DNA from: Lingula anatina
Taxonomy: Eukaryota > Animalia > Brachiopoda
DNA length: 64,000 nt
Reading direction: 5' to 3'
Assembly (NCBI GenBank): GCA_051362555.1
Contig: CM120647.1
Location: 14,050,651 to 14,114,650, forward strand
The translations under genes were made by a program, and so were the position numbers. The notes below the pieces were generated by a model. It worked only from the letters and a program-made list of their open reading frames with translations. It was not told the origin of the DNA and did not search any database. Positions 1,151 through 61,560 of this stretch are shown one piece after another; position 1 is the stretch's first letter, and every line of letters begins with the position of its first letter.

Positions 1151-1352
1151 GACAGGTTAGCTTTTAATTATTGTTAACGTTGGCGACAGTTTCAAAGCTG
1201 CCGCACGTCTAGGAAAAAAAGACTCTACACACCTGAACATAAGCCAGACAGATATTTTAGTACATTTTGGCGTGTACTAGCACACATAGAGTGTACCATG
1301 AATTTGAGCCACCCACATTGGATCAAATGCCACGCTGACTTGCAAATCACAG

Positions 1353-1655
1353 ATGGATACAACTTTGATACCATGGAAAAATCACATAATTGAAGGCTTG
1401 GATAAAAATAGTCCATACTAGACATCAGGATATAAAATCTCGCCAATTGCCGGGCACTTCATTGAGCGCGATTGTCAGTCCAGCGGCAGCGAGGGTATTG
1501 TGAGGCTCAAGGCAGAAGCTTTCGATTTGACTATACCTGACGTAAACGTAAGAAACAAGGCTGAGGCAGGAGCAAGTGCTAGCTGGAAAGGAAATAGGGT
1601 GAACACAACAGAAGGTGACGTCACCACAATGCGCCTGTCTATTCGTCTGCAAACC
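1353..1655 (+). pseudogene. Possible exon with one in-frame stop (unknown product)
   Basis: cacag|ATG at 1353 and ACC|gtgagt phase-0 donor at 1656. 101 codons (MDTTLIPWKNHIIEGLDKNSPY*TSGYK...AEAGASASWKG...RLQT) with TAG at 1419. Confidence 0.3.
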
Positions 1656-21257: not shown

Positions 21258-21551
21258 TTAAGTTAAGTAACACTAGGTAACCCTTACAATATTGTGCCTG
21301 CATTACATTTGTGTTTTAGTACCTGTTTTTGACTTTAAATTCTTGCTAGGACATTCTCTGGATAGCACATATGCATTTTCATATTTAAAAAAAATATTAT
21401 TTTAATCATCAGTAGGGGAGCATTGGAAAGATTATGTCGGCTATGTCCTGACATTAGTGAGGACAGTATTTCAAGACACTGTGTTTTTTGCTTGAGAAAT
21501 AACTAATTGTGATTTAACAGAGATAAGTAATATTATGGGTATCTACTACAG

Positions 21552-22934
21552 GGCAAAGATGTTAACGACGAGATACCGCCAGCTTATGCAAAGGGGGAGC
21601 ACACCAACATATTTGTCGTTGGGTCTACAGGAACTGGAAAGAGCGCTACCTGTAATATGATGGTGGAAAAAGAAGGTGTTTTCAAAGCAGAATTTTCCGC
21701 TGGAGGTATAACGGAAGACCTGTCATCTTACTGTGCCAACTTGGATGGACGCAAGCTTCGCCTCATTGATACTCCCGGCCTTTTAGAAGCACTTTCGTCT
21801 CGAAGGTTAGCACTTCTGAAGAAGATCATGACAAAAAACATTAGTTTGCTCGACGGCGAGGAAGGTATCGACGCGTTCTTGTTTGTCATTAGGTGCATCG
21901 ACAAGCCATCTAAAGATGAATTGAGCGCCTTAGTTCAGTTAACTTCGATGTTTTCGGAAGTCATTTTTGAATACATGATTGTTGTGGCTACTCACAAGGA
22001 CGAACTTGAGAACGATGAAAAGACAACAGAAAGTTTCAAAAGCAGTCTTCCCGACAAAATGAAGAAGATCCTTCAGAAGGCTGGTGGAAGGATAGTGTTT
22101 ATCAACAGTGTCACCAAAGACGAGAGAGAGCGTAGACGCTATGTCAAATCCATCATCCAACGTGTTGATGACATTGCAAGAGCTCATTTAGGTAAGAAAT
22201 TTACCAATGAGGCCATCGAATATGCACGCAAGAAAAGACAAGAAATGGAAAAAAAATACCCTCACCTGAGTGAGGCCGGTATACAAGAGGAATTAGAAAA
22301 AGTGATCGATCCATTTATAACATCACAATACTCTTGCTTTGATGGCTCTTCCACTGTGCGTCTCAGCGATGGGTCAGTCATACTAATGGCCAAACTAACA
22401 TCCGGTGACAAGGTGCTTTGTGTTAGGGAAGATGGCTCTGTTGGTTTCGAGGAAATCTTCTGCTTTAGCCATGCCGATGACAATTGTCAAACTTTATATG
22501 TCCACTTGGAGACAGCAACTGGACAACGCCTTCTCCTCTCTTATGGTCATTATATCTACGCTCGCTCCGAATCTAGGCCATACCCCTTTTCCCTGAAAGC
22601 CGCCCGTGATATCCGAGTTGGAGATGTGGTTTTCGTTTATCACCCTGCGACCAACGCAATGATTATGGATGAAATTGTGTCAACAGGCAGTAAGAATGTC
22701 ACCGGAGCCTTTTGTCCCCACACCATGAACGGCACCATCATCGTCAATGATATTTTGGCGTCCTGTTACACCGACGCAGTAGATCCCCTGGTGGCCAGAA
22801 AATTGCTTATCCCAGCCTGGTGTCTGTACAGGTTGCTTCCTCTACGTGTGTCTGCGCCCTTGTTGAAAAATGGCGTCTCAACTACCTGTAAACTTTTGAG
22901 CGCGACGAAGCAATATTTTAAAAGTCTTTACTAA
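21552..22934 (+). CDS. GIMAP/AIG1-family GTPase fused to a hedgehog-type Hog (Hint + SRR-like) domain, paralog 1, terminal coding exon
   Basis: The frame extends upstream of the track ATG to ctacag|GGC at 21552 and includes the P-loop NIFVVGSTGTGKSATCN, G3 LIDTPG, conserved box GIDAFLFVI, G4 THKDEL and G5 FINS. Hint starts at 22335 (CFDGSSTV...GDKVL...LSYGH...GTIIVNDILASCY). An in-frame stop at 21528 with no ATG before the P-loop means an upstream exon is required. Confidence 0.92.
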   Translation, partial: GKDVNDEIPPAYAKGEHTNIFVVGSTGTGKSATCNMMVEKEGVFKAEFSAGGITEDLSSYCANLDGRKLRLIDTPGLLEALSSRRLALLKKIMTKNISLLDGEEGIDAFLFVIRCIDKPSKDELSALVQLTSMFSEVIFEYMIVVATHKDELENDEKTTESFKSSLPDKMKKILQKAGGRIVFINSVTKDERERRRYVKSIIQRVDDIARAHLGKKFTNEAIEYARKKRQEMEKKYPHLSEAGIQEELEKVIDPFITSQYSCFDGSSTVRLSDGSVILMAKLTSGDKVLCVREDGSVGFEEIFCFSHADDNCQTLYVHLETATGQRLLLSYGHYIYARSESRPYPFSLKAARDIRVGDVVFVYHPATNAMIMDEIVSTGSKNVTGAFCPHTMNGTIIVNDILASCYTDAVDPLVARKLLIPAWCLYRLLPLRVSAPLLKNGVSTTCKLLSATKQYFKSLY

Positions 22935-25675: not shown

Positions 25676-25759
<84 letters not shown>

Positions 25760-27829: not shown

Positions 27830-29217
27830 CACACACTGGACAAAAGAAGTGTCACCCCTACTGAGCCAATACTATGGGGGAGATAAATGACTGTGGAATG
27901 ATATGCTCCTGGTATCATTTTATTAACATCAAATTTCACAAAAAATCACAAAATGAGAACAAAATATACATTCTACCAAAATATGCAGTTTCAAGTCCAA
28001 ATTTTGTACTTAGTGGCATAGCCACGTGACCTAATAATAGGTGCCAGTCTACGAAGCAAGGTTTCATATAATTGTCTGATGCGTTAAGGGCTTATGCTGG
28101 CCCAAGCATGAAACACTGAATATAACAGAGTTTCTCTGCTGGTTAGACGGGCATTTGTGAAAAGTTTTGACATATCATTCCACACATTTTCTATTATGTT
28201 TGCATCCGGACTCTGGGCAGGCCACATCACCCTGCGAATGTCCTGTTGGTCAAACCAATCATCAACTGCTCTGGGCCTGTGACAAGGAGCATTGTCATCC
28301 TGGTGAACAAATGGATAATTCCTATCACCAAACATGTTAGTAATAGATGGTAGCAAGCCTGACTCTAAAACATCGATATATTTCTAGTGATTCATGTTTC
28401 CATTAACCACTATCAATTCGCCCAAGCCATGGATGCTGATGCAGTCCCACACCATGATGAATATGCTGCTCCGGGTTCGAAAATTCAGTGCATGTGGTTC
28501 AAATGCTTTAACAGCAGTTTGCCAGCATAGTACCCGTCTGTCATCAGTGGTCAGACCAAAGCGACACTCATCAGAAAAAAATAAATAGGACCAATTGTCA
28601 TGAACTGTCCAGTTCCAGATCCTGTTGACCCTAGTTTACTCTACGTTGCCTGTTTTGTAACGATATAAGAGGTTTCAGTCTTGCTACCCTGCTGTACACT
28701 CTCAGAGCAAGTAACCGACGCCTAGCAATTTTCACAGACACATTCTTATGTGTGAAATTGTTCCACTGTGTTGTCAACTGACAAGCAGTGTCGAACTTTG
28801 ACAACCTGGACATCAAAATCAGTCGTCGGTCTTCACGGCCAGTATTTTTTTCTTGGACGACCCATCAGAGGCAATTTGTCTCTTGATCCAGTGTTTCTAT
28901 ACCGAAACCAGACCCTCTGCACGGTTCTGACTAAACAATTCAATTGTATCGATATTCTGACATTGCTTATATTCCACCTCTTCAGGTTAATAACTTGCAC
29001 CTATAACCGTTAGATAATTGCCTGTATCTTGCCATATTGGAGGAAGACAGGAATAACTTTTGCTGTACATGTACAAGACCAACAATACAATTCCATGGTA
29101 TAGCGGTTTTATACTCATTAGTCACATTATAAGTAGACCAGGCATTATAAGTACCCAAGATCTGCCTACTTTTATTACTCTGAGGTAGGGGGTGACACTT
29201 CTTTTGTCCAGTGTGTG
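27830..29217 (-). mobile_element. Tc1 transposon, copy A (1388 bp, inactivated)
   Basis: TA|CACACACTGGACAAAAGAAGTGTCAC TIRs|TA. Transposase fragments with FSDE and QDDNAPCH...SPDANIIENVW. Absent at the paralogous site near 58075. Confidence 0.93.
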
Positions 29218-29606
29218 TATATATAGAACAAGTTTTATCAATCCCTTAAAATAGGGTCGGCAAAATTGAAACAATTAAATTTATAGGCAAAGAAAATTAA
29301 TTTGAAATAATTGTAGCAAACATAACCTTCAGTATGCACAGATTTACTTGTTCACTCAGAATGTCTCGGACCGTTGCTCACAATTCTCAAAAACACATGG
29401 CATCTGATCGGGCAAGAAGAGCAAGAGCCAGAGCCACCCTCTTACACCCCTTTTGACCGACAAGCATATTGTTTTTAAAAGTATTTACTTAAAAGTATTC
29501 AATGTTATCTGAAAAAATAAAAAAAAAATCTTGAATTTATTAAGATCAGCTTTGAAATGATTTGCATTGGATATTAACTTTGTGAGTGAAATGATGACAC
29601 CAACGA

Positions 29607-29643
<37 letters not shown>

Positions 29644-31866
29644 ATGTTGATATGCTATGTTCATAAACCATAATATTTTCGAAGTATTGATTAACAGTAT
29701 GAGATAAGCAAAATGTGTTTACCGGACCTGTATACAGAGAATCTTATCTCATAATCAATTCACGAATTTTTTCTTGACAAAGAAATACATTTACTTTTTT
29801 TAAAAACTTTACTTACAATACATTGTCATTAATATCTGAGAAATTGCAGTAATAATTTTGACTTTTGGAAGATGTTAAATTCGATTTTATTGAATTTTAA
29901 TGTCATGTTAATGTTTAAATGTAAGATTATAGAATTAATTTCAAGTAGAAAGAGAAGGGGTATTATTAAAATAAACAAATGAACATCAACACACCATTAG
30001 AGAGAGGAGAGTGGTGAGAATATTGAATTAATTAATCCCCTCCGGCGGCTTCTCAAATTTCTCATTTACCTGAACACCACGATCACCGTTTCAACGCCAA
30101 TTAAATGACACCATTTGGCTCTCCGAAACCCTGCCAGCGATTTTTCCTAAAAGCCATAGTTCAGATTTTATCGTTGGTAAAGCTGAAATATACCTTCGTT
30201 TAATGAAAATTCGTAATTAGGACCTCATAATTCTGTAACAAAAACATAAAGCAAACCGATGACACGGGTTTGTAGTTCATACGTTTTGGTCAACTCAATT
30301 TTCGAAATAAAGTCTTGTTCAGGGATGAACTTAACCCGATACCAATTGTTACTTCACCTCAAAAAGGAAAGCTGTTAAATAGACAATTAAAGTTTTGAGT
30401 TACGTATGATTATACATTGGAACGAGAAGTATCATCACCGAAATTTTATATATTTCGGAGGGATTTTTTTGTTTATGATAGATGCATCTTTAAGTAATAA
30501 GAAAAAAAAATCATTTTCGATATCTGGATGGTAATTTTAAAGGTTTACAATATCCTCAATTTATCGTTTTACTTATTTATTCATTTATTTTTCTCTGTCG
30601 TTGACCTCTATTTTCACAATTGTGCTAGCTTGGACAGATCTCACCTAGCACATTTCACATTATTGTGGTCGTCATCTGGGGCTGTAGCAGATAAAGTTGT
30701 CATTTAATACGTTTAACATATGTGTGTACGGTGTGAGAAGTTGTATAAATACGAGTCTTTAAGTACTTGTGTACGTGTATTTGAATGAATATTTTGTTGA
30801 AATATTTATGTTCGTGCGTGCGTGTGCTTAAGAAAAGGTACAAAGCATACTCAATATGCTGAAACGTGTCTTTATACATGTATATGCCTATGATAAACGT
30901 TTTAAATTTGTACTTAATTAATTGCTTTGGTCAAATTGTCTTGTTTTGGTCATTTCTTTTATTTTCTTTTACTACCTTTCTATTATTTGTTCGCCTTATA
31001 TTGTAGACAAAATAACCAGAACAATAATTATCCTTTTAATTTTCCAATCATTGCTCGTTCATAACTATTTGTGTGTGTGTGTGCGCACACGCACAATAAA
31101 GTGTGTTTGTATTTCTCATTGCAACAACAAGTCTTCATTAAAGCGAAGATGGCATCCAAGTATTACCGAGGTGAAGAATACAACAACACAGTTAACTTCA
31201 GCACATAGATGGCGCATATGTAATGCATATATTTGAGAATACCTCCACATTATAAAAGGGTCGACCATATCTGTTCCGCATGACGGTCGAGTAGAGTCTA
31301 AGAATTATAGAGACTGAATACGCAGTACACAGTTTTTTATACGAGGGACAGGACCTGTTGCCGTGCATCTCCCAACACTAAATGTATGACTATCAGAGCA
31401 TTTACTACAGTACAACTCACTAGTTTTATGACCTAGTGTACAGGAGGTGAAAGTCAGGACAACTTCACTAGTGAGTTGGATGTCGATCTGTGAAGGCTCG
31501 ACAGCTGAACAGTAGAGGAGGAGTTTGCTAGCATTGCGCAGCCTCCACTTGTGGTCACACTGTCAAGTTGAGGATTGAACTAAGACAGAATTACCCTACA
31601 GTTGAGTTTCTACCTGGACAGCTAGTATATAAAGTGACACACCAGTTGACAACAGTGTTGATGACCCGTATGATAAACATAATGGTCTGCAGTGTGATCT
31701 ACAGGTACATGTATAAGTTGGCCTATGGATGCAAATCTGGAAGCCTTATACTTGTGACACCAGTGCCTGAATAAATGTATATACAATGACAGCCGTGTTT
31801 GTCTGAGAAACTGTGAGAAACTGTTAAGAAACTGTGAGAAGTTAAAGAAAATCCCAGGTAGCTATA

Positions 31867-32517
31867 ATGAACAGAATGGCGGATCAAAAGCTGGAAGAAA
31901 CCAGCGTCGTCTGCCACAGCCCGCAAGACTACAACGTGTTCATAGTGGGGTACAAGGGACACGGTAAGTCAGCCACTATGATGAACATTATACGGGACAA
32001 AAATTATAAGGGAGCCGCGGGCTACAAAATAGAGGAGAGAACGCACGAGAAATGTACATTCTATGATACCCCGGGTTTCGGCTCACTGGACACAAGCGAC
32101 TCGGAATTGCTGCGCTTGATAAACGCAAAAGCCCACGCGGTCGGTGAAGTGCACGCTGTGTTATTCGTGCTGCGTTATTGGCGCATCAGAAGTTCTGTCA
32201 TTACGTTAATACACCAACTTAAGGACGCTTTCGGGCCAGACTACCACAGACGCACCATCATAGTCTTCACCTCTTCTAAATATGAAACCGCAATGAAGTT
32301 AAGAGACTATTTGGAACACAGTGCGTTAGAATTTCAGGAATTTGTCAAGTTTTGTGAGGACAGAGTGATCATGTTGGAAAATTCTGACTACCAGACTGGG
32401 GAAACTGCTGCCTCACAAATTAAGGACATGATAACCAACAGAATGCACTCAGAGCCATTGGTAGTCCCATGGTCTACAGTAAGTAACCTAGCTTTCTTAA
32501 AGTCACTTTCATGTTAA
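31867..32517 (+). CDS. Divergent AIG1/GIMAP-family GTPase domain (exon probably ends at the donor after 32478)
   Basis: NVFIVGYKGHGKSAT (P-loop), FYDTPGF (G3), EVHAVLFVLRYWR (conserved box), TIIVFT, CEDRVIMLEN. ACA|gtaagt phase-0 donor at 32479. Confidence 0.85.
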   Translation: MNRMADQKLEETSVVCHSPQDYNVFIVGYKGHGKSATMMNIIRDKNYKGAAGYKIEERTHEKCTFYDTPGFGSLDTSDSELLRLINAKAHAVGEVHAVLFVLRYWRIRSSVITLIHQLKDAFGPDYHRRTIIVFTSSKYETAMKLRDYLEHSALEFQEFVKFCEDRVIMLENSDYQTGETAASQIKDMITNRMHSEPLVVPWSTVSNLAFLKSLSC

Positions 32518-39189: not shown

Positions 39190-42100
39190 TTTTTAAAACA
39201 GCCAAGGTCAAATAAAATCTGATAAGATAAGGTTTACTTTCAGTATAATAGAATAAATATGAAGTGAAATGAATATCATCACACAAAAAGTAAAAATATG
39301 TTATATACTGATATTAAGACCAGATTCATTATTTTTCACTGAACCCGGCTTTTAAAAAATCCCTAGATGAATTAGCATAGGATTTCCTATAGGTTCCTAT
39401 AGAAATTCCTATAAGATTTCCTAAAGGATCCTATAGGAATTTTTGTAACGTTCTGAACATAAATTAAAATCAAAATTCTATACTGATATTTAAACCAGAT
39501 TCATTATTTTTCATTCAACCCGACCTTATAAAAAATAGCCTACCTGTATGAATGAGCATAAGATTTCCTATAGGTTCCTTTCGAAATCCCTATAAGATTT
39601 CCTATAGGATACTATAGGAATTGTGGTAATGGTCTGAGCATAAATTAAAAATTAAAATACTATACTGATATTTAAACCAGATTCATTATAATTCTGTGGT
39701 AGTGCTGTTAGCGTTCAGTGTACTTTGTCTGTGATGCTGTATGAGTGTTTTTTTTTTTTTGTTTGTTTGTTTGTTTGTTTTTTTTTCTTTTTTTTTTTTT
39801 TTTTTTGTGGTGTGTTCCCTAACGAAAAAGTCCTATAGGATCCTATAGGAAATTGGGCCAATTTCCTATAGGATCCTTTAGGATCTTATAGGATCCTATA
39901 GGACTTTTTTGTAAGGGTTGTGCTGTCCCAAACACAGGAAGTCAGCCTCCTTCTGAGAGAGGATACCAGAGAGATCAAATATAACCAAGGTAAGAATCAG
40001 ACACTGTTACAATTCATTATTATTCATTCACCCCGGCCTTATTAAAATTTCCTATATGAATTAGCATAGGATTTCCTACAGGTTCCTAAAGAAATTCCTA
40101 TAAGATTTCCTATAGGATCCTATGGGAATTTTTGTATTGGTCTGAACATAAATTAAAAATTAAAATTATATACTGATATTTAAACCAGATTCATTATTTT
40201 TCATTCAACCTGGCCTTATAAAAATTCCCTGTATAAATTAGCAAAGGATTTCCTATGGGTTGCTATCGAAATCCCTATAAAATTTCCTATAGGATACTAT
40301 AGAAATTTTTGCAATGGTCGGAACATAAATTAAACATTAAAATTATATACTGATAAAAAGAACATATTCATTAGTTTTCATTCAACCCAACGTTATAAAA
40401 ATTCCCTTTATGAGTTAGCATAGCATTTCCTATAGGTTCCTATAGAAATTCCAATAAGATTTCCTATAAGATCCTATAGGAATTTTTGTAATGTTCTGAA
40501 CATAAATTTAACAATAAAATTATATACTGATATTTAGACCTGATTCATTATTTTTCATTCAACCCAAGCTTATAAGAATTTACTATATGAGTAAGCATAG
40601 CATTTCCTATAAGTTCATATAGAAATTCCTATAAGATTTCCTATAGGATCCTATAGGAATTTTGTTATATTCATTATAAAAGAATCCTGGTGAATTAGCA
40701 TAAGATTTCCTATAGGTTCCTATAGAAATTCCTATAAGATTTCCTATAGAATCCTATAGGAATTTTTGTAATGCTCTGATATAAGTTCCTGAACATAAAT
40801 TAAAAATTATATACTGATGTTTAGACCACATTCATTATTTTTCATTCAACCTGGCCTTCTAAAAATCCCCTGTATGAATAAGCATAGGATTTTCTATAGG
40901 TTCCTATCAAAATCCCTATAAGATTTCCTATAGGATCCTATGGGAATTTTTGTAATGGTCTGAACATAAATTTAAAATTAAAATTATTTACTGATTATTA
41001 GACCAGATTCATTATTTTCATTCAACCCGGCCTTGTAAAAATGTCCTATATGAATTAGCATAGGATTTCCCTTAGAAATTCCTATAAGATTTCCTATAGG
41101 TCCCTATAGAAATTCCTATAAGATTTCCTATAGGATCCTATAAGAAATTTTTGTAATGGTCTGAACATAAATTTAAAAAAATAATTTCAGCTTCAATGAT
41201 TTGGTACAAAAACATTCCTAATGATAAAATATTTCTCCATAAAAGATTACTTTACAAATGATCAGTTTTTTCAAGATTTCTTTAAAATAGAAATTAAAGA
41301 ATTTCTACAGAATCCTATAGAAGACTATAAGATTGTGCATTATAAACAATATAAAGAATATATATTTTTTTTTTTTGCTTTAATAGTGACATATAATTGA
41401 CAATTCAACTGATAAAATTGACTTATATCAAATATCTATTGTTTAGAATGATATTTGTTTATAAGATATGCATTTTTCTCAAGATTTTAACTTGTAACAA
41501 TTTCTTATTTGATCCTATTGGAAATCCTATAGGAAAGGTGCCCTATAGGATCTTATAAGATTTCCTATAGGATCCTATAGGAATATTTGTAATAGTCTGA
41601 ACATAAATTAAACATTAAAATTACGTACTGATATTTAGACCAGATTCATTAGCCTATAGGATCCTGTAGGAAAATTTCGTAAGGGGATAAAAATCTGACT
41701 AGATAAGGCTAACTTTCAATATAATGGCTAGGTCAAGTAAAGTCTGACTATAAGCAAGATGAAAATCTGATTAGATAAGGTTGACTTTTAATATAATAGA
41801 AGAAGTATGAAGTAAGTGAATATCATCATAAAAATTGTAAAAATACATAATATACTGATATTTAGACCAGATTCATTTTTTTTATTCAACCCTTATAAAA
41901 CTCGCCTGTATGAATTATCATAGGATTTCCTTTAGAAATTCCTATAAGATTTCCTATAGGATCCTATAGAAATTTCTATAAGACTTCCTATAGGATCCTA
42001 TAGAAATTCCTATAAGATTTCCTAGAGGATCCTATAGAAATTCCTATAAGCTTTCCTATAGGATTTTTTAAAATGGTCTGACCATAGATTTAAAAAGATA

Positions 42101-42670
42101 TTCAGCTTCAATCATTTGGTACAAAAACATTCCTAATGATAAAATATTTCTCCATAAAAGATTGCTTTACAAATGATAAATTTTTTTCAAGATTTTTCAA
42201 AATCCTGTAAGATTTCCTATAGGAAATTCTATTTTTTCTACTGAACTGAACATAAATTTAATAAAAAAATTAGCTTCAATGATTTGGTACAAAAATATTT
42301 CTGATGATAAAATATTTATCCATAAAAGATTGCTTTACAAATGATCAATTTTTTTCAAGATTTTTTAAATATAGATATTAAAGATTTTCTACAGAATCCT
42401 ATAGAAGACTATAAGATTGTGCATTATAAACAATATAAAGAATTTTTTTTTTTTGCTTTAATAGTGATATATAATTGACAATTCAACTGATAAAATTGAC
42501 TTTTATCACATATCCATTGTTTAGAATAATATTTGTTTATAAGATATGCATCAAGATTTTCACTTACAAAAATTTCTTATAGGATCCTATAGGAAATCAT
42601 ATAGGAAAGGTGCCCTGTAGCATCCTTTAAGATTTCCTATAGGATCCTATAGGAAATTTTCGTAAGGGAT
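39190..42670. repeat. ~177-180-bp tandem satellite rich in CCTATAGG palindromes, with higher-order duplications
   Basis: Unit atactgatattta(a/g)accagattcattatttttcattcaaccc...ttcctataggatcctataggaattttt recurs near 39305, 39481, 39662, 40170, 40347, 40525, 40811, 40989 and 41852. 41040-41600 is repeated at ~41900-42670. Confidence 0.9.
39817..39917. mobile_element. 101-bp palindromic mini-MITE (CCC termini, 2-bp TT duplication)
   Basis: tt|CCCTAACGAAAAAGTCCTATAGG...CCTATAGGACTTTTTTGTAAGGG|tt. Confidence 0.65.
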
Positions 42671-43946
42671 GTAAAATAACAATAATTCAGTTCATGAATT
42701 GATCTTCATTTCTGCAACCATTTGCTTAGACATATATGAAAAGTGCACTTTTGTATGAATAAAAGTAAACCTGAAATGCAAAACATTGTTGACATTATGT
42801 CGCACAATTTCTACCTGTATGACAGATTATTAGGGGCCCTTTCCTTGCAGTTGATAACACTGATGTGAAAAATATTTACATACTTATAATGATGCAATGC
42901 AACAAGTACATCGATTGCATGAGCATATGAAGCTGAATTAAGTCACCATAATTGAGAAACCTGTTTATATTTTTAATCTATATCTAGTGAAATGCTTGAT
43001 TGAAGACTCATGATTGATATGTGCTGTGTGCAATAATTGTGTATGGGTATGTACATATAAGGCCTTAGATGCTGTTACTACACAATTTGTCAATTAATTT
43101 GGGAGAAGTCCACAACTGGTTGTCACAGTTGTTAAGAATACGCCACCTACAAGATCTAAATTTCTTGTAGTTAAAGAACATTCATCTTTTTCTGCATATC
43201 AGACTATCTGTGGAAGGAGCACCATACAAAATTTTACATTTCTTGCAAATTTTTCCATTTATCCTTTAAAAATATGAGAAAGAAAAAGTGTTTTTATTAT
43301 GTCTTGTGCTTCTGCTCACAATTCTGAATAAATAGAATACCTCTCCTAGTTGTGTGCAAGCTATCAGGATAACAACTCCAAAACAACGAATGAACACTGC
43401 ATTTGACTTTGGGTATACATTTTCTTCAACAATCCCCGTCAGACCATGTGACGAAAGGTTTGTAGTGTACATACATGACATTGTTACATGTGACCAAAAT
43501 TTTTGAAAGGGATGAGGAGACATTTTAGAGTCATAAGCAATTGACATGCATGGCAGAATGATTTTTGTTTTCTACAGAGTTGTGATAACTGGAATTGAGA
43601 ACAAATAAAAATACACGGCAGATTCTCTTCAAAAACAATCATTAAAAGAGCAAAGTTAGGAAAAACAAGTAAAATTCAGAACCCAATGATCATTTTTCAA
43701 AATTTCTCTGACAAATAAGAAGAACTGATCTGTTCTTTCAGTGTTATATTTTCAGATCTGAGTGTCGCTTCATACAAACCCAATTAAATAACTCCTGTCA
43801 TGCACTGGATTTCAGTCTCCTGTTTCAGTCTCCATGTTCAGATCTTATCTCCTCAGCTGGTCACAAAGGTCGAGGAACATTTTTTGCTGCTTCTACCTTG
43901 TGTGTCAACTAGCTGCCTTTTGTACCTGTCATTAAAAGCTTCCGTG

Positions 43947-43998
<52 letters not shown>

Positions 43999-44937
43999 TT
44001 GCACCTAATCAGTGTGGCTTGGTGGGAAAATGCCTGATCAATTTCCTAAATATAAATTAATAAAAAAGATAACAATAGTGATTTTTATTCATATTGTAAC
44101 TTACAACATTACAGTTGGAAGGAGCAGAATTTAACATTTTTACAAAGTGCAAATTTATTTCATGAGGTTATGCTATACACCTAAGGTAGAATATACTTTC
44201 CAAATATAACACTAAACCAAAGCGACAATTAAGCCACTAACTTCCAAATACACTTCATACTTGATTTAATTGGCCCAGCGCATGCTGCTGTGTACAAATA
44301 TAGCCTTGACACAAAATGACAATAATGCTAACCAGGTATTATAAAGAGGTAGGTGACAGCCGATAAAATCCGTAGAGGACCGTAACTCATAACAAATTAC
44401 ACCCAAAGCAATAAGTGAGTCTTCATAATAAAAGTCGAAACCCTGCCTGGGTATTTCCACACATTTTAACAACGCACTCTCCACCCAAACTTTTTGGGCA
44501 CTACTTTAAATATATATGGAGTGTACGTGTGGCCCAAACGTACACACCTACGTCTTTGGTCTTCTACATTTTTTTTTTTTTTTTTTTGCAGTAATTCATC
44601 AATTTGCTCGGTTTAATATCAAAGAAAACACAGAAAACAAAAAAAATGAACCACAGACATGGCTTGTTCATGCGCAGCGAACGATTCCGGTCTCCCTACA
44701 GTATGGCTGCCATTTGTTTTGATGACGCAGGCTCTAGTGGGTCTATTGTGGTAAAAATATTGAAAAAAAATAAGGTTTTATAAACATCGCAATAAAAGCT
44801 AATATGTAGCAGTGGGGAAATGATAATCGAAGACCAACGTCAAACAGGGGAAAAGTCTGACAATCTGATAACGTGTCCCCTTTACATTATAGTACTGTTT
44901 ATTGTGATATCGCTTAAAGAGGAGGTGGGTCTAACTA

Positions 44938-46325
44938 CACACACTGAACAAAAGAAGTGTCACCCCCTAACTCAGAGTAATGAAAGTAGGCAGATCTTGG
45001 GTACTTATAATGCCTGGTCTACTTATAATGTGACTAATGAGTATAAAACCGCTATACCATGGAATTGTATTGTTGGTCTTGTACATGTACAGCAAATGTT
45101 ATTCCTGTCTTCCTCCAGTATGGCAAGATACAGGTAATTATCTAACGGTTATAGGTGCAAGTTATTAACCTGAAGATGCGGAATATAAGCGATGTCAGAA
45201 TATCGATACAATTGAATTGTTCAGTCAGAACCGTGCAGAGGGTCTGGTCTCGGTATAGAAACACTGGATCAAGAGACAAATTGCCTCTGATGGGTTGTCC
45301 AAGAAAAAATACTGGCCTTGAAGACCGACGACTGATTTTGATGTCCAGGTTGTCAAAGTTCGACACTGCTTGTCAGTTGACAACACAGTGGAACAATTTC
45401 ACACATAAGAATGTGTCTGTGAAAATTGTTAGGCGTCGGTTACATGCTCAGAGAGTGTACAGCAGGGTAGCAAGACTGAAACCTCTTATATCGTTACAAA
45501 ACAGGCAACGTAGAGTAAACTAGGGTCAACAGGATCTGGAACTGGACAGTTCATGACAATTGGTCCTATATATTTTTTCTGATGAGTGTCACTTTGGTCT
45601 GACCTCTGATGACAGACGGGTACTATGCTGGCAAACTGCTGGTAAAGCATTTAAACCACATGCACTGAATTTTCGAACCCGGAGCAGCATATTCATTATG
45701 GTGTGGGGCTGCATCAGCATCCATGGCTTGGGCGAATTGATAGTGGTTAATGGAAACATGAATCACTAGAAATATTTCGATGTTTTGGAGTCAGGCTTGC
45801 TACCATCTATTACTAACATGTTTGGTGAAAGGAATTATCCATCTGTTCACCAGGATGACAATGCTCCTTGTCACAGGCCCAGAGCAGTTGATGATTGGTT
45901 TGACCAACAGGACATTCGCAGGGTGATGTGGCCTGCCCAGAGTCCGGATACAAACATAATAGAAAATGTGTGGAATGATATGTCAAAACTTTTTACAAAT
46001 GCCCGTCTAACCAGCAGAGAAACTCTGTTATATTCAGTGTTTCATGCTTGGGCCAGCGTAAGAGCGTAACGCATCAGACAATTAAATGAATCCTTGCTTC
46101 GTAGACTGGCACCTATTATTAGGTCACGTGGCTATGCCACTAAGTACTAATTTTGGACTTGAAACTACATATTATGGTAGAATGTATATTTTGTTCTCAT
46201 TTTGTGATTTTTTTTGTGAAATCTGATGTTAATAAAATGATACCAGGAGCATATCATTCCACAGTCATTTATCTCCCCCATAGTATTGGCTCAGTAGGTG
46301 TGACACTTCTTTTGTCCAGTGTGTG
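44938..46325 (+). mobile_element. Tc1 transposon, copy B (near-identical to copy A, opposite orientation)
   Basis: TA-flanked TIRs CACACACTG(A/G)ACAAAAGAAGTGTCAC. ORF pieces 45155-45523, 45560-45769 and 45785-46069 form a DD34E-type transposase with stops. Confidence 0.93.
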
Positions 46326-46834
46326 TATAGCTCGAAATCTATTGTTAAACGCAATTGTTGTCTCTTCTCATACAAAGTAAAAACATGCCTTTACAGTTAC
46401 TGTGTGTTCGGCTGCTGTGAAGAAACGCCCTGTCGAACAGATTTTGCTATATTTAAATACACTAGCGACTTGTTTTAGATCACTGTAGTGAGAAAGCATA
46501 CGTGCGACACCGGCCAATAACAGTCAAGTATAGAATTGACATCTTATATTTTAGATGCACATACATATAACGCAATGAGAGCTGAGCATTACACCTCGAT
46601 TACTAACGTCCATTTTAAAGCAACAACGAGAAAAAGGGCGCCCTGTCATAGTTATGTGACATGGGTGATGAGATGATAATATTCAAAAGTAAACGAAAAG
46701 GTTTATATAAACAACAGAATAGGAGAAAATAGCTAGCAGTGGCGCAAGCGCTATTGAACTCCAGCGTGGAGCAGGGGGGAGTCTGACTGTGTGTATTAAC
46801 AGTGTAAGACATCGGTTAAAGAGGAGGGGGGTTG

Positions 46835-50810: not shown

Positions 50811-51720
50811 TTACTATAGCTCGGAATTAATTGTTAAATGCGATTGTTATCACGCCTTTGCAATTAGTGTGTCTTTGTCAGTTCTGTCACCTTGTGGTTG
50901 GACATCACCCACGTTAAGAGGAGGCACACATTAACCATATGCGGATTTTGGCCCCACCCTTCCCTTACAGGGCTTAGACTGGTCATTATGTACCACCATG
51001 GCGCTTTTCTTTTTGTTTTTATCTTATTTAAAATTTGAAGGGACCTAGCCATATGGGCTGTAATTTCTTTGAACAACCGGGTTTTAACATTTTATTATAT
51101 ACCTTAACTCTAGGACACCCTTACACTATTGACTGACCCTAATTTGTACTAATCATATGGGACCCTGGACTCCCATTCCTAGGGCAAGCATTACTGTCAC
51201 ACCGGCACAGAAATTTAGCAATTTAGCTTTGAATATTGATTACTTCAAAAGCTGGAGTTTTTTGCCCATTTTCCTTTAACGGTAATTAAAACAAACAATG
51301 TGTTTTTTTCAGTAAAATGTATTATTTAGAGTCTTTCCAAACGTTTAAAATTCACTACTATGAGATCATCAAATATGTATATGATTTACGGTCGGGCAAC
51401 AGTTTATGTATTCAACGTTCAAATATGAATTATCAGAAATTGTCTCAGAAACCTAAACAAGGGACCAAGATATTCCTTACAAATAGGGTTAGAAACAAGT
51501 AAATACGAAAGACTAGCTTACTGTTTCGTTTTATTCGCCCAGCATGTTTTGGAGATAGGAGTATATGCCGTCAAGACCTTTTCATATTAACAAAAACGTT
51601 ATATCTTTTTTATTATTATCAGTAGGAAGGCATTGAATAAATTTTGTTGACATCGCATTTGCTTGGTCATAAAAAAGGTGATTTAAAAAAGATTGGTAAT
51701 ATTATGGTTATCTACTACAG

Positions 51721-53100
51721 GACACACATCCTTATGGTGAACTACCAGCAGCTTATGCAAAGGGGGAGCACACCAACATTGTCGTCGTTGGGAAGACAGG
51801 GACCGGAAAGAGCTCTACCTGTAATATGTTGTTGGATAAAGAAGGGGTTTTCAAAGCAGAATTATCCCCAAACAGTGTAACGAGAGTCGTGAAATCTAAC
51901 TGTGCCAACGTGGATGGACACAAGCTTCGCCTCATCGATACTCCTGGTCTCTTAGAAGCAGTTTCGTCTAGCAGTTTAGAATTTCTTAAGATCGTGGCAA
52001 AATGCATTATTTTGCTCGACGGCGAAGAAGGTTTCGACGCGTTCTTGTTTGTCATTAACTGCAAGGAAACGCCATCTCAAGAGGAAGTGAACGCCTTAAA
52101 TCAGTTAATTTCGATGTTTTCGGAAGCCATTTGTCAATACATGGTTGTTGTGGCTACTCACAAGGATGAACTTGAGAACAATGAAAGCACAACAGAAAGT
52201 TTCAAAAGCCGTCGTCCCGACAAAATGAAGACGATCCTTCAGAAGGCCGGTGACAGGATGGAGTTCATCAACAGCGTCACCCAGGACAGGGAAGAGCGTA
52301 GACAGTACATAGAAGCCATCATCAGACAAGTTGATGCCATTGCAAGAGCTCATAAAGGTAAGAAATTCTCCAATGATGCGATCAACCAAGCAAGGAAAAA
52401 AGGACAAGAACTGAGAAAAAAATACCCTCACCTGAGTGAGGCCGGTATACAAGAGGAATTACAAAAATTGATCGAGTCACATTTAACATCACAGTACTGG
52501 TGTTTCGATGGCTCTTCCACTGTGCGACTTAGCAATGGGTCAGTCACAGCAATGGCCAAACTATCTCCCGGTGACAGGGTGCTTTGTGTTAGGGACGATG
52601 GCTCCGTCGGCTTCGAGGAAATCTTCTGTTTCAGCCATGCCGATGACAATTGTCAAACTATATATGTCCACTTGGAGACAGCAAATGGACAACGCCTCCT
52701 CCTCTCTTACGGTCATTATATCCACGCTCCCTCCAACTCTACATCATTCCCATTTTCCCTGAAAGCCGCCCGTGATATCCGAGTTGGAGATGTGGTGTTC
52801 GTGTATCACCCTGCGACCAACGCCATGCTTATGGATGAAATTGTGTCAACAGGCAGTAAGAAGGTCACAGGAGCCTTTTGTCCTCACACCATCAGTGGTA
52901 CGATCATCGTGAATGATATTTTGGCGTCCTGTTACGCCGACGCCGTAGATCCCCTGGTGGCGAGAAAATTGCTTATGCCAGCCTGGTGTCTGTACAAGTT
53001 GCTTCCGCTGAGGGTGTCTGCGCCAGTGTTGAAAGATGGCGTCTCAAATACCTGTAAACTTTTGAGCGCGACGAAGCAATATTTAAAAAGTCTTTACTAG
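51721..53100 (+). CDS. GIMAP/AIG1-family GTPase fused to a hedgehog-type Hog (Hint + SRR-like) domain, paralog 2, terminal coding exon
   Basis: ctacag|GAC phase-0 acceptor at 51721. NIVVVGKTGTGKSSTCN, LIDTPG, GFDAFLFVI, THKDEL. Hint from 52501 (CFDGSSTV...FSH...LSYGH...ILASCY). Open frame of 459 codons. Confidence 0.92.
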   Translation, partial: DTHPYGELPAAYAKGEHTNIVVVGKTGTGKSSTCNMLLDKEGVFKAELSPNSVTRVVKSNCANVDGHKLRLIDTPGLLEAVSSSSLEFLKIVAKCIILLDGEEGFDAFLFVINCKETPSQEEVNALNQLISMFSEAICQYMVVVATHKDELENNESTTESFKSRRPDKMKTILQKAGDRMEFINSVTQDREERRQYIEAIIRQVDAIARAHKGKKFSNDAINQARKKGQELRKKYPHLSEAGIQEELQKLIESHLTSQYWCFDGSSTVRLSNGSVTAMAKLSPGDRVLCVRDDGSVGFEEIFCFSHADDNCQTIYVHLETANGQRLLLSYGHYIHAPSNSTSFPFSLKAARDIRVGDVVFVYHPATNAMLMDEIVSTGSKKVTGAFCPHTISGTIIVNDILASCYADAVDPLVARKLLMPAWCLYKLLPLRVSAPVLKDGVSNTCKLLSATKQYLKSLY

Positions 53101-53251
53101 AGTAGCATGTAAGCAAACCACCATCAATGACTAAACGTCTGTTACAGGGAGCAGGATTCAGTTGATAACTTAGAGTGAGAAGATGTCATACCTGTGTAAA
53201 CATGAATGACTAAACCTGCAACTAAGGTTATGCTAATACAGTTCGCTTTAA

Positions 53252-53916
53252 TACCCCCGTCACACAAAAGGAGGAATGAGCAAGAATGCCGTCGGAAAGA
53301 CAATTCTTTGTGCGCTCCTGGATATTCGAAGAGCATTCTAAAAATTCCGAGTGCATTCAAATTTCCACTTGGAATGCACTTCGAAAGTTTTTGACATGAC
53401 AAAAATATTCGGGATGCCACAAGAATGGGTAAAAATATTTGGAATGCACTCAGAATTTTTATGATGTTTTAGAATGCTCTTCGAATATCCTGGAATGCAC
53501 AAAGAATTGTATTTCATTCTTAATCATTCCGCCTCTAGTGTGACGGGAATTTTATATCCCGCAGGAATGTTTCGAATGTGCCTCGGGTGAGTTGAAATAT
53601 TAACGTTGCCAGCAATCGAACTACACTAGTGCGCCGTTCAAAGTATATTCTAAATATTCTTACTGCCTTCTTACAGCATTATAAATATTCCTAGTTTTCC
53701 AACTACCTTCGAACTGCTTTTGAGAGCTAATACAGTCGAAAGTGCACTCATCATTCCAGGCGAATTCAAGCGCTTTCTGAGTATTCCAACGGTATTCTTA
53801 CAATAATTAAGGTCAATTTGAAATTTTTCCCCGAATGTGGTAAGAATTTTAAAGATACTTCGTTCAGGCTCATTCTTCTTCATTCCTGCTGATTCTGATT
53901 AAGTGTGACGGGGGTA
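53252..53916. mobile_element. PIF/Harbinger-type MITE ~150 bp downstream of the paralog-2 stop
   Basis: TAA|TACCCCCGTCACAC ... GTGTGACGGGGGTA|TAA. Absent from the paralogous site near 23074. Confidence 0.85.
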
Positions 53917-54584
53917 TAAGATCGAAGATTTTATGCGTTTATCATGTGCAATTTGGACATTGCGAACTTACTCAATTGGATATATTACTACAGCGCAACT
54001 TTACTATCTGATTATGTGATAGGGTTGTATTTCCGAAACACCCATTAGTGTACATTTTAGAAAAAAAATCAAGCACAAAATGACCCATTTTTTTTCACTC
54101 TCTTGCTTCTTTCATCTAATGTGTGTGGCCGAAATTATTTTTAGAATTTGTATTTATATACTTACGTATTTTATCATCAAAATGGCGGACACGTTTTACC
54201 AGACCTATACAAGGCATAATCAACTTCAGAAATTCGACTGTATACCAAATTAGTATGTAGTTTAGTTAGAATTATGTGTTTGTCTTAAAAGTAAAAGGTC
54301 AAACAAGGCATATTCCTCTGATGTTATGGTGGCGCGATCCTATCATTTAAGCAAGATGTTTTCCCCGAGAGCAAAATTTGGTGCGGCTCGAAGGTATTGG
54401 GATACATAATTTTCGCACCAAATCTTATTTTGTCGAGAATATAGCAAATGTATGTATGAATAAATTATTGCTCGGCCCAGTTAATTTGCTCTTTTTACTG
54501 ACAGTTTTTTTTTTTTTTTTTTCAAAGTCTAACTTAGAAAAGGTAAGTAACTTTACAAGATATAGAGACAAGGCTTTGGATATT

Positions 54585-55163
54585 AGAGAGTTTTGGCAAG
54601 GCCTTCCGTACGACGTATAACGTGCGACGTCATCACTTTGTGCGTAGTTTTTCTCAAGGACAAGTCATAAGTCATACGGCACTACGTATGAATCGGTGAT
54701 TACACGTAGGTAAGAAACGTATCGACTTTAATAGACTTACGCTTATTTCTTTCAAGTTTAACATACTGCAGAGGAATATATAGGGTGTTAAGATTCCACT
54801 GAATCACTTTTAGACGCTGTCGGTAGAAATACTCTGTGAAAACAGCTGGAAAAACAGCCAGTCAATCAGTCGTCCGTAGTAGTATCAAATTCAATTTAAG
54901 TTGATTTTTTTTCATAAACAACAGGATCTGCGGCATCAATTGACGTAAATAACACATTCCATTCAATATTTTAATTATTCATCTATCTAAAAAGAATCCA
55001 AATATTATAATATTTATATATAATATAAATAAAAATAATATAAAAAAACCGCATACGGAGTGAGACCTGCCAAAACCACTGCTAGCTTTCTCGCGTACGT
55101 AAAACGTATTACGTATTGAACTATACGTTACACGCCATACGGAAGGCCTTGCCAAAACTCTTA
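54585..55163. mobile_element. MITE with AGAG-type termini (Harbinger/Pangu-like)
   Basis: TIRs AGAGTTTTGGCAAGGCCTTCCGTA / TACGGAAGGCCTTGCCAAAACTCT; ATT-like flanks. Confidence 0.7.
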
Positions 55164-56145
55164 ATTATTCAAACACGTGTAGAATATAATTCAACCAATT
55201 TCAAAATTAAGTGGTATAAGCGATCCTGTACATTTGGCCTATGTGTCAGATCCAGTTGGCATATATATTGGCTTGACTAAAGAAGTACATGTTAACGGTA
55301 TAGTGCTTGCTTTACCATAGTGATTACAAGATTTCACAACAAGAACAAATGCATATAATAAGCCAAAGACCGTATCACAGATTTCCTGTCTACATGTTGC
55401 AAAATGTTTTGATTATTCTCATTTTTTAAACATTTTTCTTTGTACCTACAATGTGCTTTGTACATACATGCACAATTACAAATAACACGACAAACGACAA
55501 CCATTATTTGGAATACTATCGATCACATTATCAATGTTCACAGATTCTATATGTTTAATTAAGACTCTTTGAAGCATTTTTTTTTTTTTTTTTTTGCATA
55601 TTGAACCTGCTAATCCACTTGCATTTGTCTGTATTCATTTCGAATAATTTGCACTCAATACAGGTTAATTTTAATTTAATTTGAAGTTGACGTGATTTGC
55701 TATATGTGTCTGTTGCCACAGTACATTTTAGGGGGAGGCAAACTTTTATTACAACATTTTAATGACTTAATGGTTGGGGTTTTCTTTGTTTTTACTTTGA
55801 TTATTTCAGATATTAATCTGTGTGTCATCATTATGAATACGAGTGCGCCAAACAAGAAATTATAGCAACGACTATCTTGTTTTAGTCATGAGAAATATTA
55901 GTATCTTTATAAATCACATTGTACTATTTATAATGCAAAATGCTTGTTTACGCTTTCTTATTATCTATTACATTGAATTATTGATAATAGTCATATTTGG
56001 TGTAAACCATGGTCTTTATTGTTAGCATGCTGTATCTATTTATTTTCCAATGTCATAATTATCAGCATGCTGTGTTCTATTTACTCTTTAATGTTATGAA
56101 TAATGTCTGTTTTTAGCGTTTGCTGAACAGCAATGATTTAGAATG

Positions 56146-56182
<37 letters not shown>

Positions 56183-58895
56183 TTAAAACAACAAAGAAAA
56201 ATGCGTTTTTAAAATAAGTTTTCGTCTTATTTGGTAAGTGAATTAACTTCATTGAAATTTTATGGAAGGTTTGATTTTCTTAATTGGACTTCATCAAGTT
56301 AATTGGTTCTGCTCATTACCTGATATAGAAGGAGATTATATAGTATATACAATATATGTTGCATCAAAAACCATTACACTTTGAAAAATTGTTTTACTTA
56401 GTCTTTATATTATACAAGGAGCTAATTGTGTTATTACTGCGACGGTAAAATGCTGTTTTTAGGCTTTATAATGAACTATCAACAAATTATACAATATGTA
56501 CTCGATTTGGACGATGTATTCTTAAAATTAAGTTAAATTGAAGTAGTTTTTATCTCAATATGGTATAATGACACAATGTCCTATTAGTAAATACATTTAA
56601 CAAAAGGCATGACGTACTGATTTATGTAATGCATCTCTTTCGACATCGAAATTACATGAATTGTTTTGATAATTTATGCATCTTATGTTATTTAGTATTT
56701 GCTTTGCTTTAAAAACAAAAGAAAAAGGAGTCTATGTTGTGAAACTTGAGAATACGAATATCAATTTATATATTTATTTATTTATTTTATTCTATTTATT
56801 TTATTATTATTATTATTTTTTATTTATTTATTTAATTTTTTTTGTAGAAAGGTTGTATAATGTAAAATTAATGATCAACACTTTCCCTAATTGCAAGTTG
56901 TAATTGGATGGATCAAATAATTTAAAAGATATGGAGTTATTAAGTTCAACAAGTGGACATGATGTTTTTAAGTTAGGAAAAAATGGAAATGCCAGTTTCA
57001 TTTGACTGGTTAACTTCACAATCAAATTGTAAGGTAATACCACGTGCATAAATCTTACCAGCTGTGTTTTGTATATGATCTAATGATGAGTAATTCAAAT
57101 AATATTTTACATTTTCTTTATTGAAGACAAATCTCTTAGAAATTACCTAATAAGGAATTATAGAATGGTGGAATGCAAAATGAGAATGCAAAATCTCGGC
57201 TAATCACGTAAATACAATGGAACGAAAACCAGTAAATGTGTGATCAGTAAGGAGAAATAGAGTACAAATAGTTGTAAAATTGTAAGAAAAATAAGTCGGC
57301 GAATAAATGTTTGAAGGCTCGTATCTTTAACTTTACTATCTGTTATATTATGCTTTGTTCTTACTTTGTAAAATTAGTTGCACAAATACAATAAATAAAA
57401 TTCGTCTCATAATTGAAATAAATTATGGTGATTTCCCCAATGCTGATCAATTACAATAACTCATTTTACCAGATTAAATAATGAAGACCTGGTATATATT
57501 CTTAAAGCCACCATCACCTGCTCAAATAAATGCATTTTTTTTTCTAAAATAGATTAGGAAATAATCCATGATCACTTTTGAATTCTGACGTCAATTTCTA
57601 CCCATGCGCCATTCACGACTTCAAAGTCTACAACGAAGAAATCATCAAAGTCGTTTCCTTTTTGTTCAGAATGTTCATAAGTGAAATATTCCATTACCGA
57701 AATGTACTGGTAGATGTCCCACAACGATGCTTCCTCCTTAAACAAAATAGTATGAATTGAAATAAATATTGCAGTCATAGTAATGAGAACGATTTTTTCT
57801 AGATTATATCTAAAATCCTTATATCCGGTAAAATGTACAGAAAATGTAGGCAATAATCAGCAGAGAAGTAAAACAAAAGAAAAATGGATTGGACTGAGAA
57901 AATTGAAAAAAAAATTGAACAAATCTGACAAAGTTTAATTTGAAAATTCTTTATCAGGCCCTTAAGAACAACAGGAGGCGAAATTGAGTCAATCATATTT
58001 TAAGATACATAAAACAATTTGAAAGAACTGCAGCGAACATTAATTACAGAATGTACTAAGACTATATTTTTTAAATTAAAAAAGTTTTTATCAATCCCTT
58101 AAAAACAGGGGGCGGCAAAATTGAGCCAATTACATTTATAGGGAAAGAAAAATCATTTGAAATAATTGTAGCAAACATAACCTTCAGTATGCACGGGTTT
58201 GCTTGTTCACGCAAAATGTCTCGGACCACTCCTCATAAGTTCTCGAAAACACATGGTATCTGATAGGGCAAGAAGAACACGAGCCAGAGCCGTCCTCTCA
58301 TACGCCTTTTGACCGACATGCATATTGTTTAAGTCTTCAATATTATCTGAAAAGTAATAAAAATCATTAATTTATTCAGATCACAGCTTTGGAATGATTT
58401 GCATTGAGTATTGATTTTGAGAGTGAAAAAAAAAATGACACCAACGAAAACAAAAGTTCATGTGCTATGCTCGTTAAACATAATGTTTGTGAAATATTGA
58501 TTAAAAGCATGAGATAAACAAAATGTGTCTATCGCCCTGTTTACAGAGACTATTACCTCGCTAATTATCAATTATACATTTTTTTACTTTCCGTATTTAG
58601 ACATAGAAATACATTTACTCCTTTAAAACTTTACTGCAGTGCAGTGTCAGTATTTGTAGATTATAATTCAACTTTTGGAAGATGTTTAATTCCATTTTTT
58701 TTTGTATCTTATTGCCATGCTATAGTTTTATTTAAGTTTTTGTAACAGCTTTCGCTAGATTACAGAATGAATTTCAAGGAGAGAGAGAGAGAGATGGGGT
58801 TTTACATGAATTAAAATAAAAGATCTACCGTCATCAACACACAAATAGGGAGAGGATTGTGGGGAGAAAATTGAAACTTAATAAAGTAATTAACC

Positions 58896-61026: not shown

Positions 61027-61392
61027 TCATTCGCCAGTTTGAATATCTGGGTCTATATATGTGCTTTCGCCTCCAGAATTCCGCATAGATAATATCAAAG
61101 TCACCACACGGTACCCTATCACCAAGAGAAACGGCGAAAGGTCAATCAACACAAGAAGTGCTATAGCTATGTACTTTATAGAGGGGTGGATTATGTCTGC
61201 ACTGAGGGGTATAATCCATGCCACCCCAACGTTAACGCCAATGACCAGTATAATGATAACAACGAGGAGAAGACTTGCACAAAATGTACTTCTCTTGCTG
61301 CGCCCGCTAGTAAGTAGGCGATTTTCATCTGAAGTTTCAGATGGGAACATTTTTTCATTGATCTGCTCTCTGAGTAAACGTTCACCTTTTGC
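61027..61392 (-). CDS. Possible exon encoding a small two-transmembrane protein
   Basis: 107-aa ORF from ATG at 61350 with two hydrophobic stretches (FCASLLLVVIIILVIGVNVGVAWII; YIAIALLVLIDLSPFLLVIGY). The frame stays open up to a ttattcag acceptor at ~61393. No family recognised. Confidence 0.4.
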   Translation of the reverse strand, partial: AKGERLLREQINEKMFPSETSDENRLLTSGRSKRSTFCASLLLVVIIILVIGVNVGVAWIIPLSADIIHPSIKYIAIALLVLIDLSPFLLVIGYRVVTLILSMRNSGGESTYIDPDIQTGE

Positions 61393-61560
61393 CTGAATAA
61401 TGTTGACCTACTGCCTGAGTAAGGTTGACCTACTGTCTGAGCAATGTTGATCTATATGTAATGTCTGAGTAATTTCAGCACTCCGCCTGAGTAATATTGA
61501 CCTTCCGTCTGCGTAAGGTTGGCCTACTGTCTGAGTAATGTTGACCTCCTCCCTGAGTTA
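61393..61560. repeat. ~21-bp minisatellite
   Basis: ctgagtaa(t/g)gttgacctactg variants, about 7 degenerate copies. Confidence 0.8.

Follow-up and report, generated by a model that had tools for sequence, protein, structure and literature searches.

Does the residue before the scissile cysteine of a Hog domain decide how the protein is processed? The question arises here from two frames of the window (the whole stretch of 64,000 nucleotides that was analyzed), each of which joins an AIG1/GIMAP GTPase domain to a Hog domain, with Ser at this position (-1) in the first, copy 1, and Trp in the second, copy 2. Our preferred answer, which we hold to be reasonably probable, is that copy 2 represents the last exon, duplicated, of a GIMAP-Hog gene, with a Hog domain that likely self-cleaves at the Trp-Cys bond, Trp being the usual residue of its subfamily rather than a switch.

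Two last exons of a GIMAP-Hog gene

The frames are free of stops from 21531 to 22934 (copy 1) and from 51700 to 53100 (copy 2), and Pfam recognizes AIG1 and Hint domains in each, both above the curated cut-offs. Their features are as follows.

21552..22934, plus strand: copy 1, last exon, 460 aa, with the Ser(-1)/Cys1 pair at 22332-22337
51721..53100, plus strand: copy 2, last exon, 459 aa without a start codon of its own; AIG1/GIMAP GTPase, Hint and C-terminal adduct-recognition region
51700..51720, plus strand: putative splice acceptor of copy 2, read from the sequence; phase 0, last bases CTACAG, also conserved in copy 1
51775..52419, plus strand: AIG1/GIMAP GTPase domain of copy 2 (Pfam PF04548, E 1.1e-43; GIMAP7 3zjc, E 8e-20)
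52498..52503, plus strand: Trp(-1)/Cys1 junction of copy 2, TGG TGT, the predicted scissile bond, aligned to Gly/Cys of Sonic hedgehog
52501..52935, plus strand: Hint domain of copy 2 (Pfam PF01079, E 2.9e-34), with Cys1, His46 (52636-52638), S-x-x-His72 (52714-52716) and Cys144 of SCY (52930-52932)
52936..53097, plus strand: SRR/ARR-like tail of copy 2; helix-1 Pro kept, Hedgehog H374, F377, R381 and HWY not kept

The copies are identical at 357 of 467 residues (76%), and the codons confirm the junctions reported by the earlier, sequence-only reading: QYS/CF in copy 1 (TCT for Ser at 22332-22334, then TGC for Cys at 22335) and QYW/CF in copy 2 (TGG for Trp at 52498-52500, then TGT for Cys at 52501). 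The AIG1 domain of copy 2 scores 149.5 bits against a cut-off of 27, and its GKTGTGKS, DTPG and THKD motifs, which we take to be G1, G3 and G4, align with the nucleotide-binding motifs of GIMAP7 and GIMAP4. The Arg of LGRY in GIMAP7, presumably the arginine finger of the conserved box, pairs with a Glu of copy 2 beside a gap, in what is a pairwise alignment only. A model of copy 2 by AlphaFold, based on an alignment of two sequences, had a pLDDT of 33, too low for use.

Neither frame is a whole gene. The first in-frame Met is residue 36 in both copies, downstream of the P-loop; both open at a common CTACAG/G acceptor, before which 27 of 30 bases match, and some 60 bases upstream the similarity is near background. 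Since no Met precedes the P-loop and the similarity starts about 60 bases before the acceptor, these frames are last exons. Copy 2 had been called a second intact paralog, and this is right for a stop-free frame with both domains, but what is intact is the last exon only.

Duplication and constraint

Copy 2 would have arisen by tandem duplication of the last exon together with its 3' flank, and would need a 5' exon.

51658..58885, plus strand: unit 2 of a segmental duplication in tandem, unit 1 being 21487-30035; collinear blocks 72-85% identical

The 3' flank of copy 2 holds an insertion of about 680 bases (53250-53929) that copy 1 lacks; in each of the four runs examined, its start has the very high depth of a repeat.

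The window is animal-like DNA, with a GC content of about 27-44% and decayed transposases. A Tc1-like element is present in two copies of opposite orientation (27826-29219 and 44936-46329), 96.8% identical and with a broken transposase; the first of them interrupts the duplicated flank of copy 1. A DDE_Tnp_4 transposase, presumably Harbinger-type, lies in two frames on the minus strand (10068-11142), an array of tandem repeats, each of about 177 bases, spans 39200-42700, with inverted pieces near 41900-42700, and a 126-aa frame on the minus strand (61027-61407) has two hydrophobic stretches and no Pfam match.

From two intact copies among decayed transposon frames the sequence-only reading had argued for purifying selection on the fusion. 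The decay is confirmed (in the five transposon stretches checked, the longest stop-free frames are of 99-197 aa), but it is a poor control for age, and the duplicated flanks are a better one. These have diverged by 0.15-0.20, about as much as the copies, whose dS is 0.22, and over 2,838 aligned bases they hold 43 gaps that would break a frame. A neutral frame this long would be expected to collect about 21 frameshifts at the flank rate, or about 4 at one-fifth of it; none is observed, the coding frames differing by one whole codon only, and a neutral branch remains stop-free in 1% of 2,000 simulations. Because so many frameshifts are predicted and the frames differ by a single codon, both exons appear to have been kept open through most of their divergence, which does not imply a present-day function. 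The constraint is uneven along the fusion. It is evident in the Hog half, where the copies differ at 26 of 199 residues and dN/dS is 0.30 (bootstrap 0.18-0.53), but the GTPase half (21552-22334 versus 51721-52500) has a dN/dS of 0.88 (0.58-1.39), indistinguishable from neutrality, and purifying selection can thus be upheld for the former and not for the latter. Diversifying selection may explain some segments of the GTPase half in which replacements outnumber silent changes.

Two DNA runs from a single study, X1 and X2, contain contigs that match parts of copy 2 exactly. Along with these come many contigs that differ by 10-19%, with as many as 12 at a single site, an indication of a larger family. 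Among nine runs listed, no RNA run was a carrier, which has no bearing on expression. Runs X4 and X8 yielded contigs with only other letters at several copy-2 sites, contigs being unable to show absence.

Where are the 5' exons?

The closest proteins found are two from Lingula anatina, XP_013418790.1 (P0158, 859 aa, 71% identity) and XP_013384271.1 (P0003, 841 aa, 66%), both named "uncharacterized protein". Their last 460-470 residues align end to end with the window exons, these identities holding over the whole last exon, and before their GIMAP and Hog domains they have an N-terminal domain of about 390 residues. A 5' exon of the relatives' type is not found intact in the window, which does contain the following.

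1299..1655, plus strand: broken first exon, ATG to GTGAGT donor, matching residues 1-123 of P0158 (the start of the predicted MACPF/CDC-like domain)
31867..32478, plus strand: divergent AIG1 exon, candidate 5' exon for copy 2; 204 aa from ATG, phase-0 donor ACA/GTAAGT, Pfam AIG1 E 1.6e-21

The first of these matches the first 113-123 residues of P0158 and P0003 (for P0158, tblastn E 1.8e-38, with identities of 83% and 64% in two frames). It has a frameshift and an in-frame stop, was overlooked by the ORF and Pfam scans, and has no second copy in the window, where the exon or exons for residues 124-391 of P0158 were not found either; the only cognate first exon is thus a broken one some 50 kb upstream of copy 2. 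Pfam found no CARD, death or MACPF exon, and transposase pieces only, in 123 short plus-strand frames, a set that leaves out those below about 45 aa and some longer ones. A 70% match between 18676-18813 and 50874-51032 was set aside, as the two share no open start and are probably a repeat. Among proteins, word-index searches for relatives of 252-804 aa returned none, the close relatives being longer, and none of 36 pattern matches was confirmed as a metagenome locus encoding a relative.

A start could have come from elsewhere. The last exon may have been captured by the AIG1 exon at 31867-32478, giving an AIG1-AIG1-Hog chain over a 19-kb intron, an exon shuffling that fits our preferred explanation, would supply the start, and that we regard as possible, though tentatively. 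The AIG1 exon has 204 codons between its ATG and a consensus donor, whose phase, 0, is also that of the acceptor; the interval up to copy 2 has a single further strong acceptor that leads into an open phase-0 frame of at least 40 aa, and a tandem AIG1 followed by Hint exists in P0031. Against this, a crude scan of the same interval gives four other ATG-to-donor candidates, and the link has no homologous gene model behind it, the exon being at most 30% identical to any relative collected. Its frame (31867-32517) stops 12 codons beyond the donor, and its motifs are altered (GYKGHGKS, DTPG, TSSK).

We find it rather unlikely that copy 2, perhaps together with copy 1, is an orphaned last exon, a young pseudogene whose 5' exons were lost recently and which has not yet decayed. 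Such a history would agree with the lack of an in-frame ATG before the P-loop, with a duplication that begins about 60 bases before the acceptor, with the broken state of the sole cognate first exon and the missing exon(s) behind it, and with a GTPase dN/dS near 1. It agrees poorly with 1.38-kb frames that show no frameshift or stop at their present dS, against two lesions in the 357 bases of the first exon; because that exon has two lesions and the frames none, the GIMAP-Hog exons were constrained for longer. The low dN/dS of the Hog half and the fact that the Hog domain of copy 2 has changed less than that of copy 1 also count against it.

The predicted cleavage reaction

In our preferred reading of copy 2 as a duplicated, self-cleaving last exon, the argument rests on residues kept in its Hog domain: Cys1 (Cys261), the motif-B S-Y-G-H, His46 and the SCY Cys144 are all present. 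Hedgehog uses the equivalent residues in an N-S acyl shift and in the transfer to sterol (PMC9163320, PMC13738340, PMC4695875). Because the Cys1, S-x-x-His, general-base His and SCY Cys used by Hedgehog are retained, cleavage at the Trp-Cys bond of copy 2 is likely. Cys1 would attack the preceding carbonyl in an N-S acyl shift, assisted by S-x-x-His72, and His46, which is Asp in Hedgehog, would activate a nucleophile: most likely the alcohol of a membrane sterol or of another lipid, or else water. The GTPase would then be released, its C-terminal Trp lipid-anchored or free. Some vertebrate GIMAPs have C-terminal membrane helices, and a lipid anchor would be similar. An engineered His at the corresponding place of Drosophila Hedgehog (D303H) leaves the protein active, with a wider sterol range (PMC9163320).

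We are less sure of the adduct, as both copies have replacements at the SRR residues for cholesterolysis. Cholesterol transfer by human Sonic hedgehog requires H374, F377, R381 and HWY (PMC7242414), and the aligned places hold R, L, W and S-N-T. The adduct may, to judge by this alignment, not be a sterol; we favor transfer to membrane sterol or another lipid, with plain hydrolysis as the alternative.

With the autoprocessing domain of Hedgehog (1at0, 6tyy, 6td6, 7e2i) copy 2 shares the Hint homology (E 3e-13 against 6tyy, the D303H structure), Cys1, the motif-B His, the SCY Cys and a tail of SRR length with the helix-1 Pro. In contrast, the window copies have His for Asp46 and Ser for Thr in TxxH, and we rejected Hedgehog proper on the AIG1 GTPase upstream in place of the Hedge domain, the Trp or Ser instead of Gly at -1, and the replaced cholesterolysis residues. 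Protein splicing, suggested for the coral proteins (PMC3723955), was also rejected: class 1 inteins have a terminal Asn followed by a C-extein nucleophile (PMC11842431), and here there is no terminal Asn, the Hint domain ending in A-S-C-Y as in Hedgehog.

The residue before the scissile cysteine

The survey of -1 residues in homologues that the sequence-only reading had called for was run on 34 AIG1-Hog fusions: the best 150 of 8,502 matches gave 35 with both domains, two of which show no Cys1 in the predicted sequence and were excluded from the count, and P0158 was added to the remaining 33. Window copies excluded, these have 12 different residues at -1 (five Ala; four each of Trp, Glu and Ser; three each of Asp, Gln, Gly and Lys; two Thr; one each of Phe, Pro and Leu), a variability reached by no more than 12 of the 135 Hint columns. 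In the same fusions His46 and His72 are invariant (34/34 each), as is the motif-F Pro; position 69 is Ser or Thr in all 34 (Ser in 27, Thr in 7), and Cys144 is kept in 30. The -1 position thus appears, from these sequences, close to free in AIG1-Hog fusions. Hedgehog's G/CF, which had been taken as the baseline, is the wrong one for Hog domains outside Hedgehog, with Gly in only three of the 34; nor is Trp unusual, being present in four of the 34 and in three of the four members of the subfamily (copy 2; P0158, with QYW/CF; P0003, with QFW/CF), where Ser is found in copy 1 alone. A hand count over three of the ten parts of the PMC2362128 sequence table, covering 30 junctions of non-Hedgehog Hog domains, gave six Gly, five Val, five Ala, four Leu, four Ser, four Tyr and two Glu; the text of that 2008 table, its sequence cells truncated at 400 letters, has no WCF junction. 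Work with Drosophila HhC has used a Gly spacer (PMC3417536, bioRxiv 10.1101/2023.12.19.572427).

That the -1 residue affects the rate of intein cleavage, as the sequence-only reading had stated, is borne out by a scan of the Tk RadA intein, in which cleavage is near-complete with all 20 residues, Trp being moderate together with Gly and Tyr, and Ser slow (PMC11842431). The suggestion that copy 2 may stay uncleaved on account of its Trp finds no support in the same scan, where Trp does not block. A difference in rate between the paralogs is possible on these grounds; a special role of Trp is not supported. The literature searched held no such scan of a Hog domain, and the intein ranking may fail to carry over. 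As a separate observation, a Physella fusion, P0066, has Pro at -1; Pro would be the residue least likely to cleave well, making P0066 a better candidate than the Trp proteins for a slow junction.

Which of the two residues is the older? Sites informative on the pairing favor copies 1 and 2 together against P0158 and P0003, by 11 versus 5 and 4 in the GTPase half and by 11 versus 1 in the Hog half. Because the window copies pair in this way, the simplest history, likely though not proven from these sequences, has Trp as the ancestral residue and a Trp-to-Ser change in copy 1. The Hog domain of copy 1, at 22335-22934, has also changed more than that of copy 2, 15 versus 4 with P0158 as outgroup (p 0.019) and 13 versus 5 with P0003 (p 0.096), and its Ser is probably a derived change, part of this faster drift. 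In trees with distant outgroups, whose root is not fixed, the Hog half has the three Trp proteins as a group that excludes copy 1 (98/72, unstarred), and for the GTPase half a clade of copies 1 and 2 is not rejected (AU p 0.127).

It is improbable that selection for tuned processing, with one copy slower, conditional or uncleaved, brought about the difference between Ser and Trp: the strong effect of -1 on inteins (PMC11842431) speaks for it, as does the excess of changes in the Hog domain of copy 1, some of them close to the junction, a possible sign of functional divergence (of copy 1 rather than copy 2), but -1 is among the most variable Hint sites, Trp is common to most of the subfamily and does not block the intein, and with 26 Hog differences between the copies a gap in rate could not be pinned on -1 without swaps.

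The full-length relatives

AIG1-Hint fusions are known from GmGIN1 of Glomus mosseae (PMC2362128), four transcripts of Acropora millepora (PMC3723955), an AIG of Biomphalaria glabrata (PMC7053062) and amphioxus, as AIG1+HINT and CARD+AIG1+HINT (PMC12373286), and the ESM Atlas has a 59-member cluster of AIG1+Hint proteins from Mucoromycota. Like the window copies they place the AIG1 GTPase before a C-terminal Hog domain, and GmGIN1 has His at the Asp46 position and Gly at -1; the window copies differ in being last exons. The available parts of these papers do not discuss the -1 residue and do not mention an N-terminus of the kind found in P0158 and P0003.

This N-terminal region, present on the 859- and 841-aa chains and not intact in the window, is shared by 11 of the 36 fusions collected, according to an iterated local profile: P0158, P0003, P0057, P0015, P0037, P0072, P0042, P0117, P0077, P0066 and P0138, with Potamilus, Haliotis and Physella among the species. 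Pfam MACPF matches two of ten proteins scanned below its cut-off (19.1 and 17.6 bits versus 21.5) and none of the other eight, and of the 128 matches from a profile search of PDB sequences the best 60 included none to the N-terminal part. A model of residues 1-392 of P0158 was built from an 11-sequence alignment, with moderate confidence (pLDDT 58.5). Foldseek returned 18 matches at E<=0.001 (best E 6.7e-5), those listed being all MACPF/CDC, and VIA, an independent aligner, gave stonustoxin (4wvm_B) as best match (Z 9.1, rmsd 4.2, 153 aligned), with only MACPF, CDC or gasdermin proteins in its first 19 rows. The N-terminal domain of the relatives is thus predicted, from this model, to have a MACPF/CDC (perforin-like) fold, which does not imply the function. 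It resembles the superfamily (stonustoxin 4wvm, complement C8/C9, MPEG1, CDCs, gasdermins) in fold and differs in its 10-15% identity, in having no evident signal peptide, and in that GIMAP and Hog domains come after it where a receptor-binding domain would be expected. The likeness is a feature of the relatives, and for copy 2 it is not established. In five other fusions scanned, a CARD takes the place of this region, one having also a DED.

Chance joins are argued against because the N-terminal domain and the fusion recur together in several species, though all of these are gene predictions. We regard the architecture as probably real, the full-length form of the subfamily being a MACPF/CDC-like domain followed by GIMAP and Hog. 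Automatic database labels join stonustoxin-like and GTPase domains in fish. No MACPF-GIMAP-Hog design was found in the literature searched, outside which most subscription papers lie; the supplements of PMC3723955, PMC7053062 and PMC12373286 may list such proteins, and the accessible part of PMC9334734 has none.

Implications

If the pieces are put together, a bold and rather doubtful proposal is that of a cytosolic pore-forming immune protein of brachiopods and molluscs, in which the Hog domain would free the perforin-like and GIMAP parts and esterify their C-terminus to a membrane lipid, aiming the pore and coupling its activity to that lipid. On the same reading, the window may have caught a reshuffling, a candidate history in which the perforin-like exon is dead and the GIMAP-Hog exon has been duplicated and re-attached to another GTPase exon. 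Of interest here are the three-domain form, not reported in the papers searched, and the exon reshuffling, both resting on prediction, the AIG1-Hint fusion itself being already known.

For the junction, the near freedom of -1 in AIG1-Hog fusions would correct a Hedgehog-centered view of a required Gly; the Trp itself matters little. Hog lipidation of any non-Hedgehog animal protein is described as open in the parts available of PMC4695875 and PMC2362128, and these compact single-exon GIMAP-Hog units, with a natural His46 and altered sterol-recognition residues, would be simple substrates on which to test it. If the full-length relatives do combine a perforin-like domain with GIMAP and Hog, pore-forming immunity, immunity GTPases and self-lipidation would be linked in one chain.
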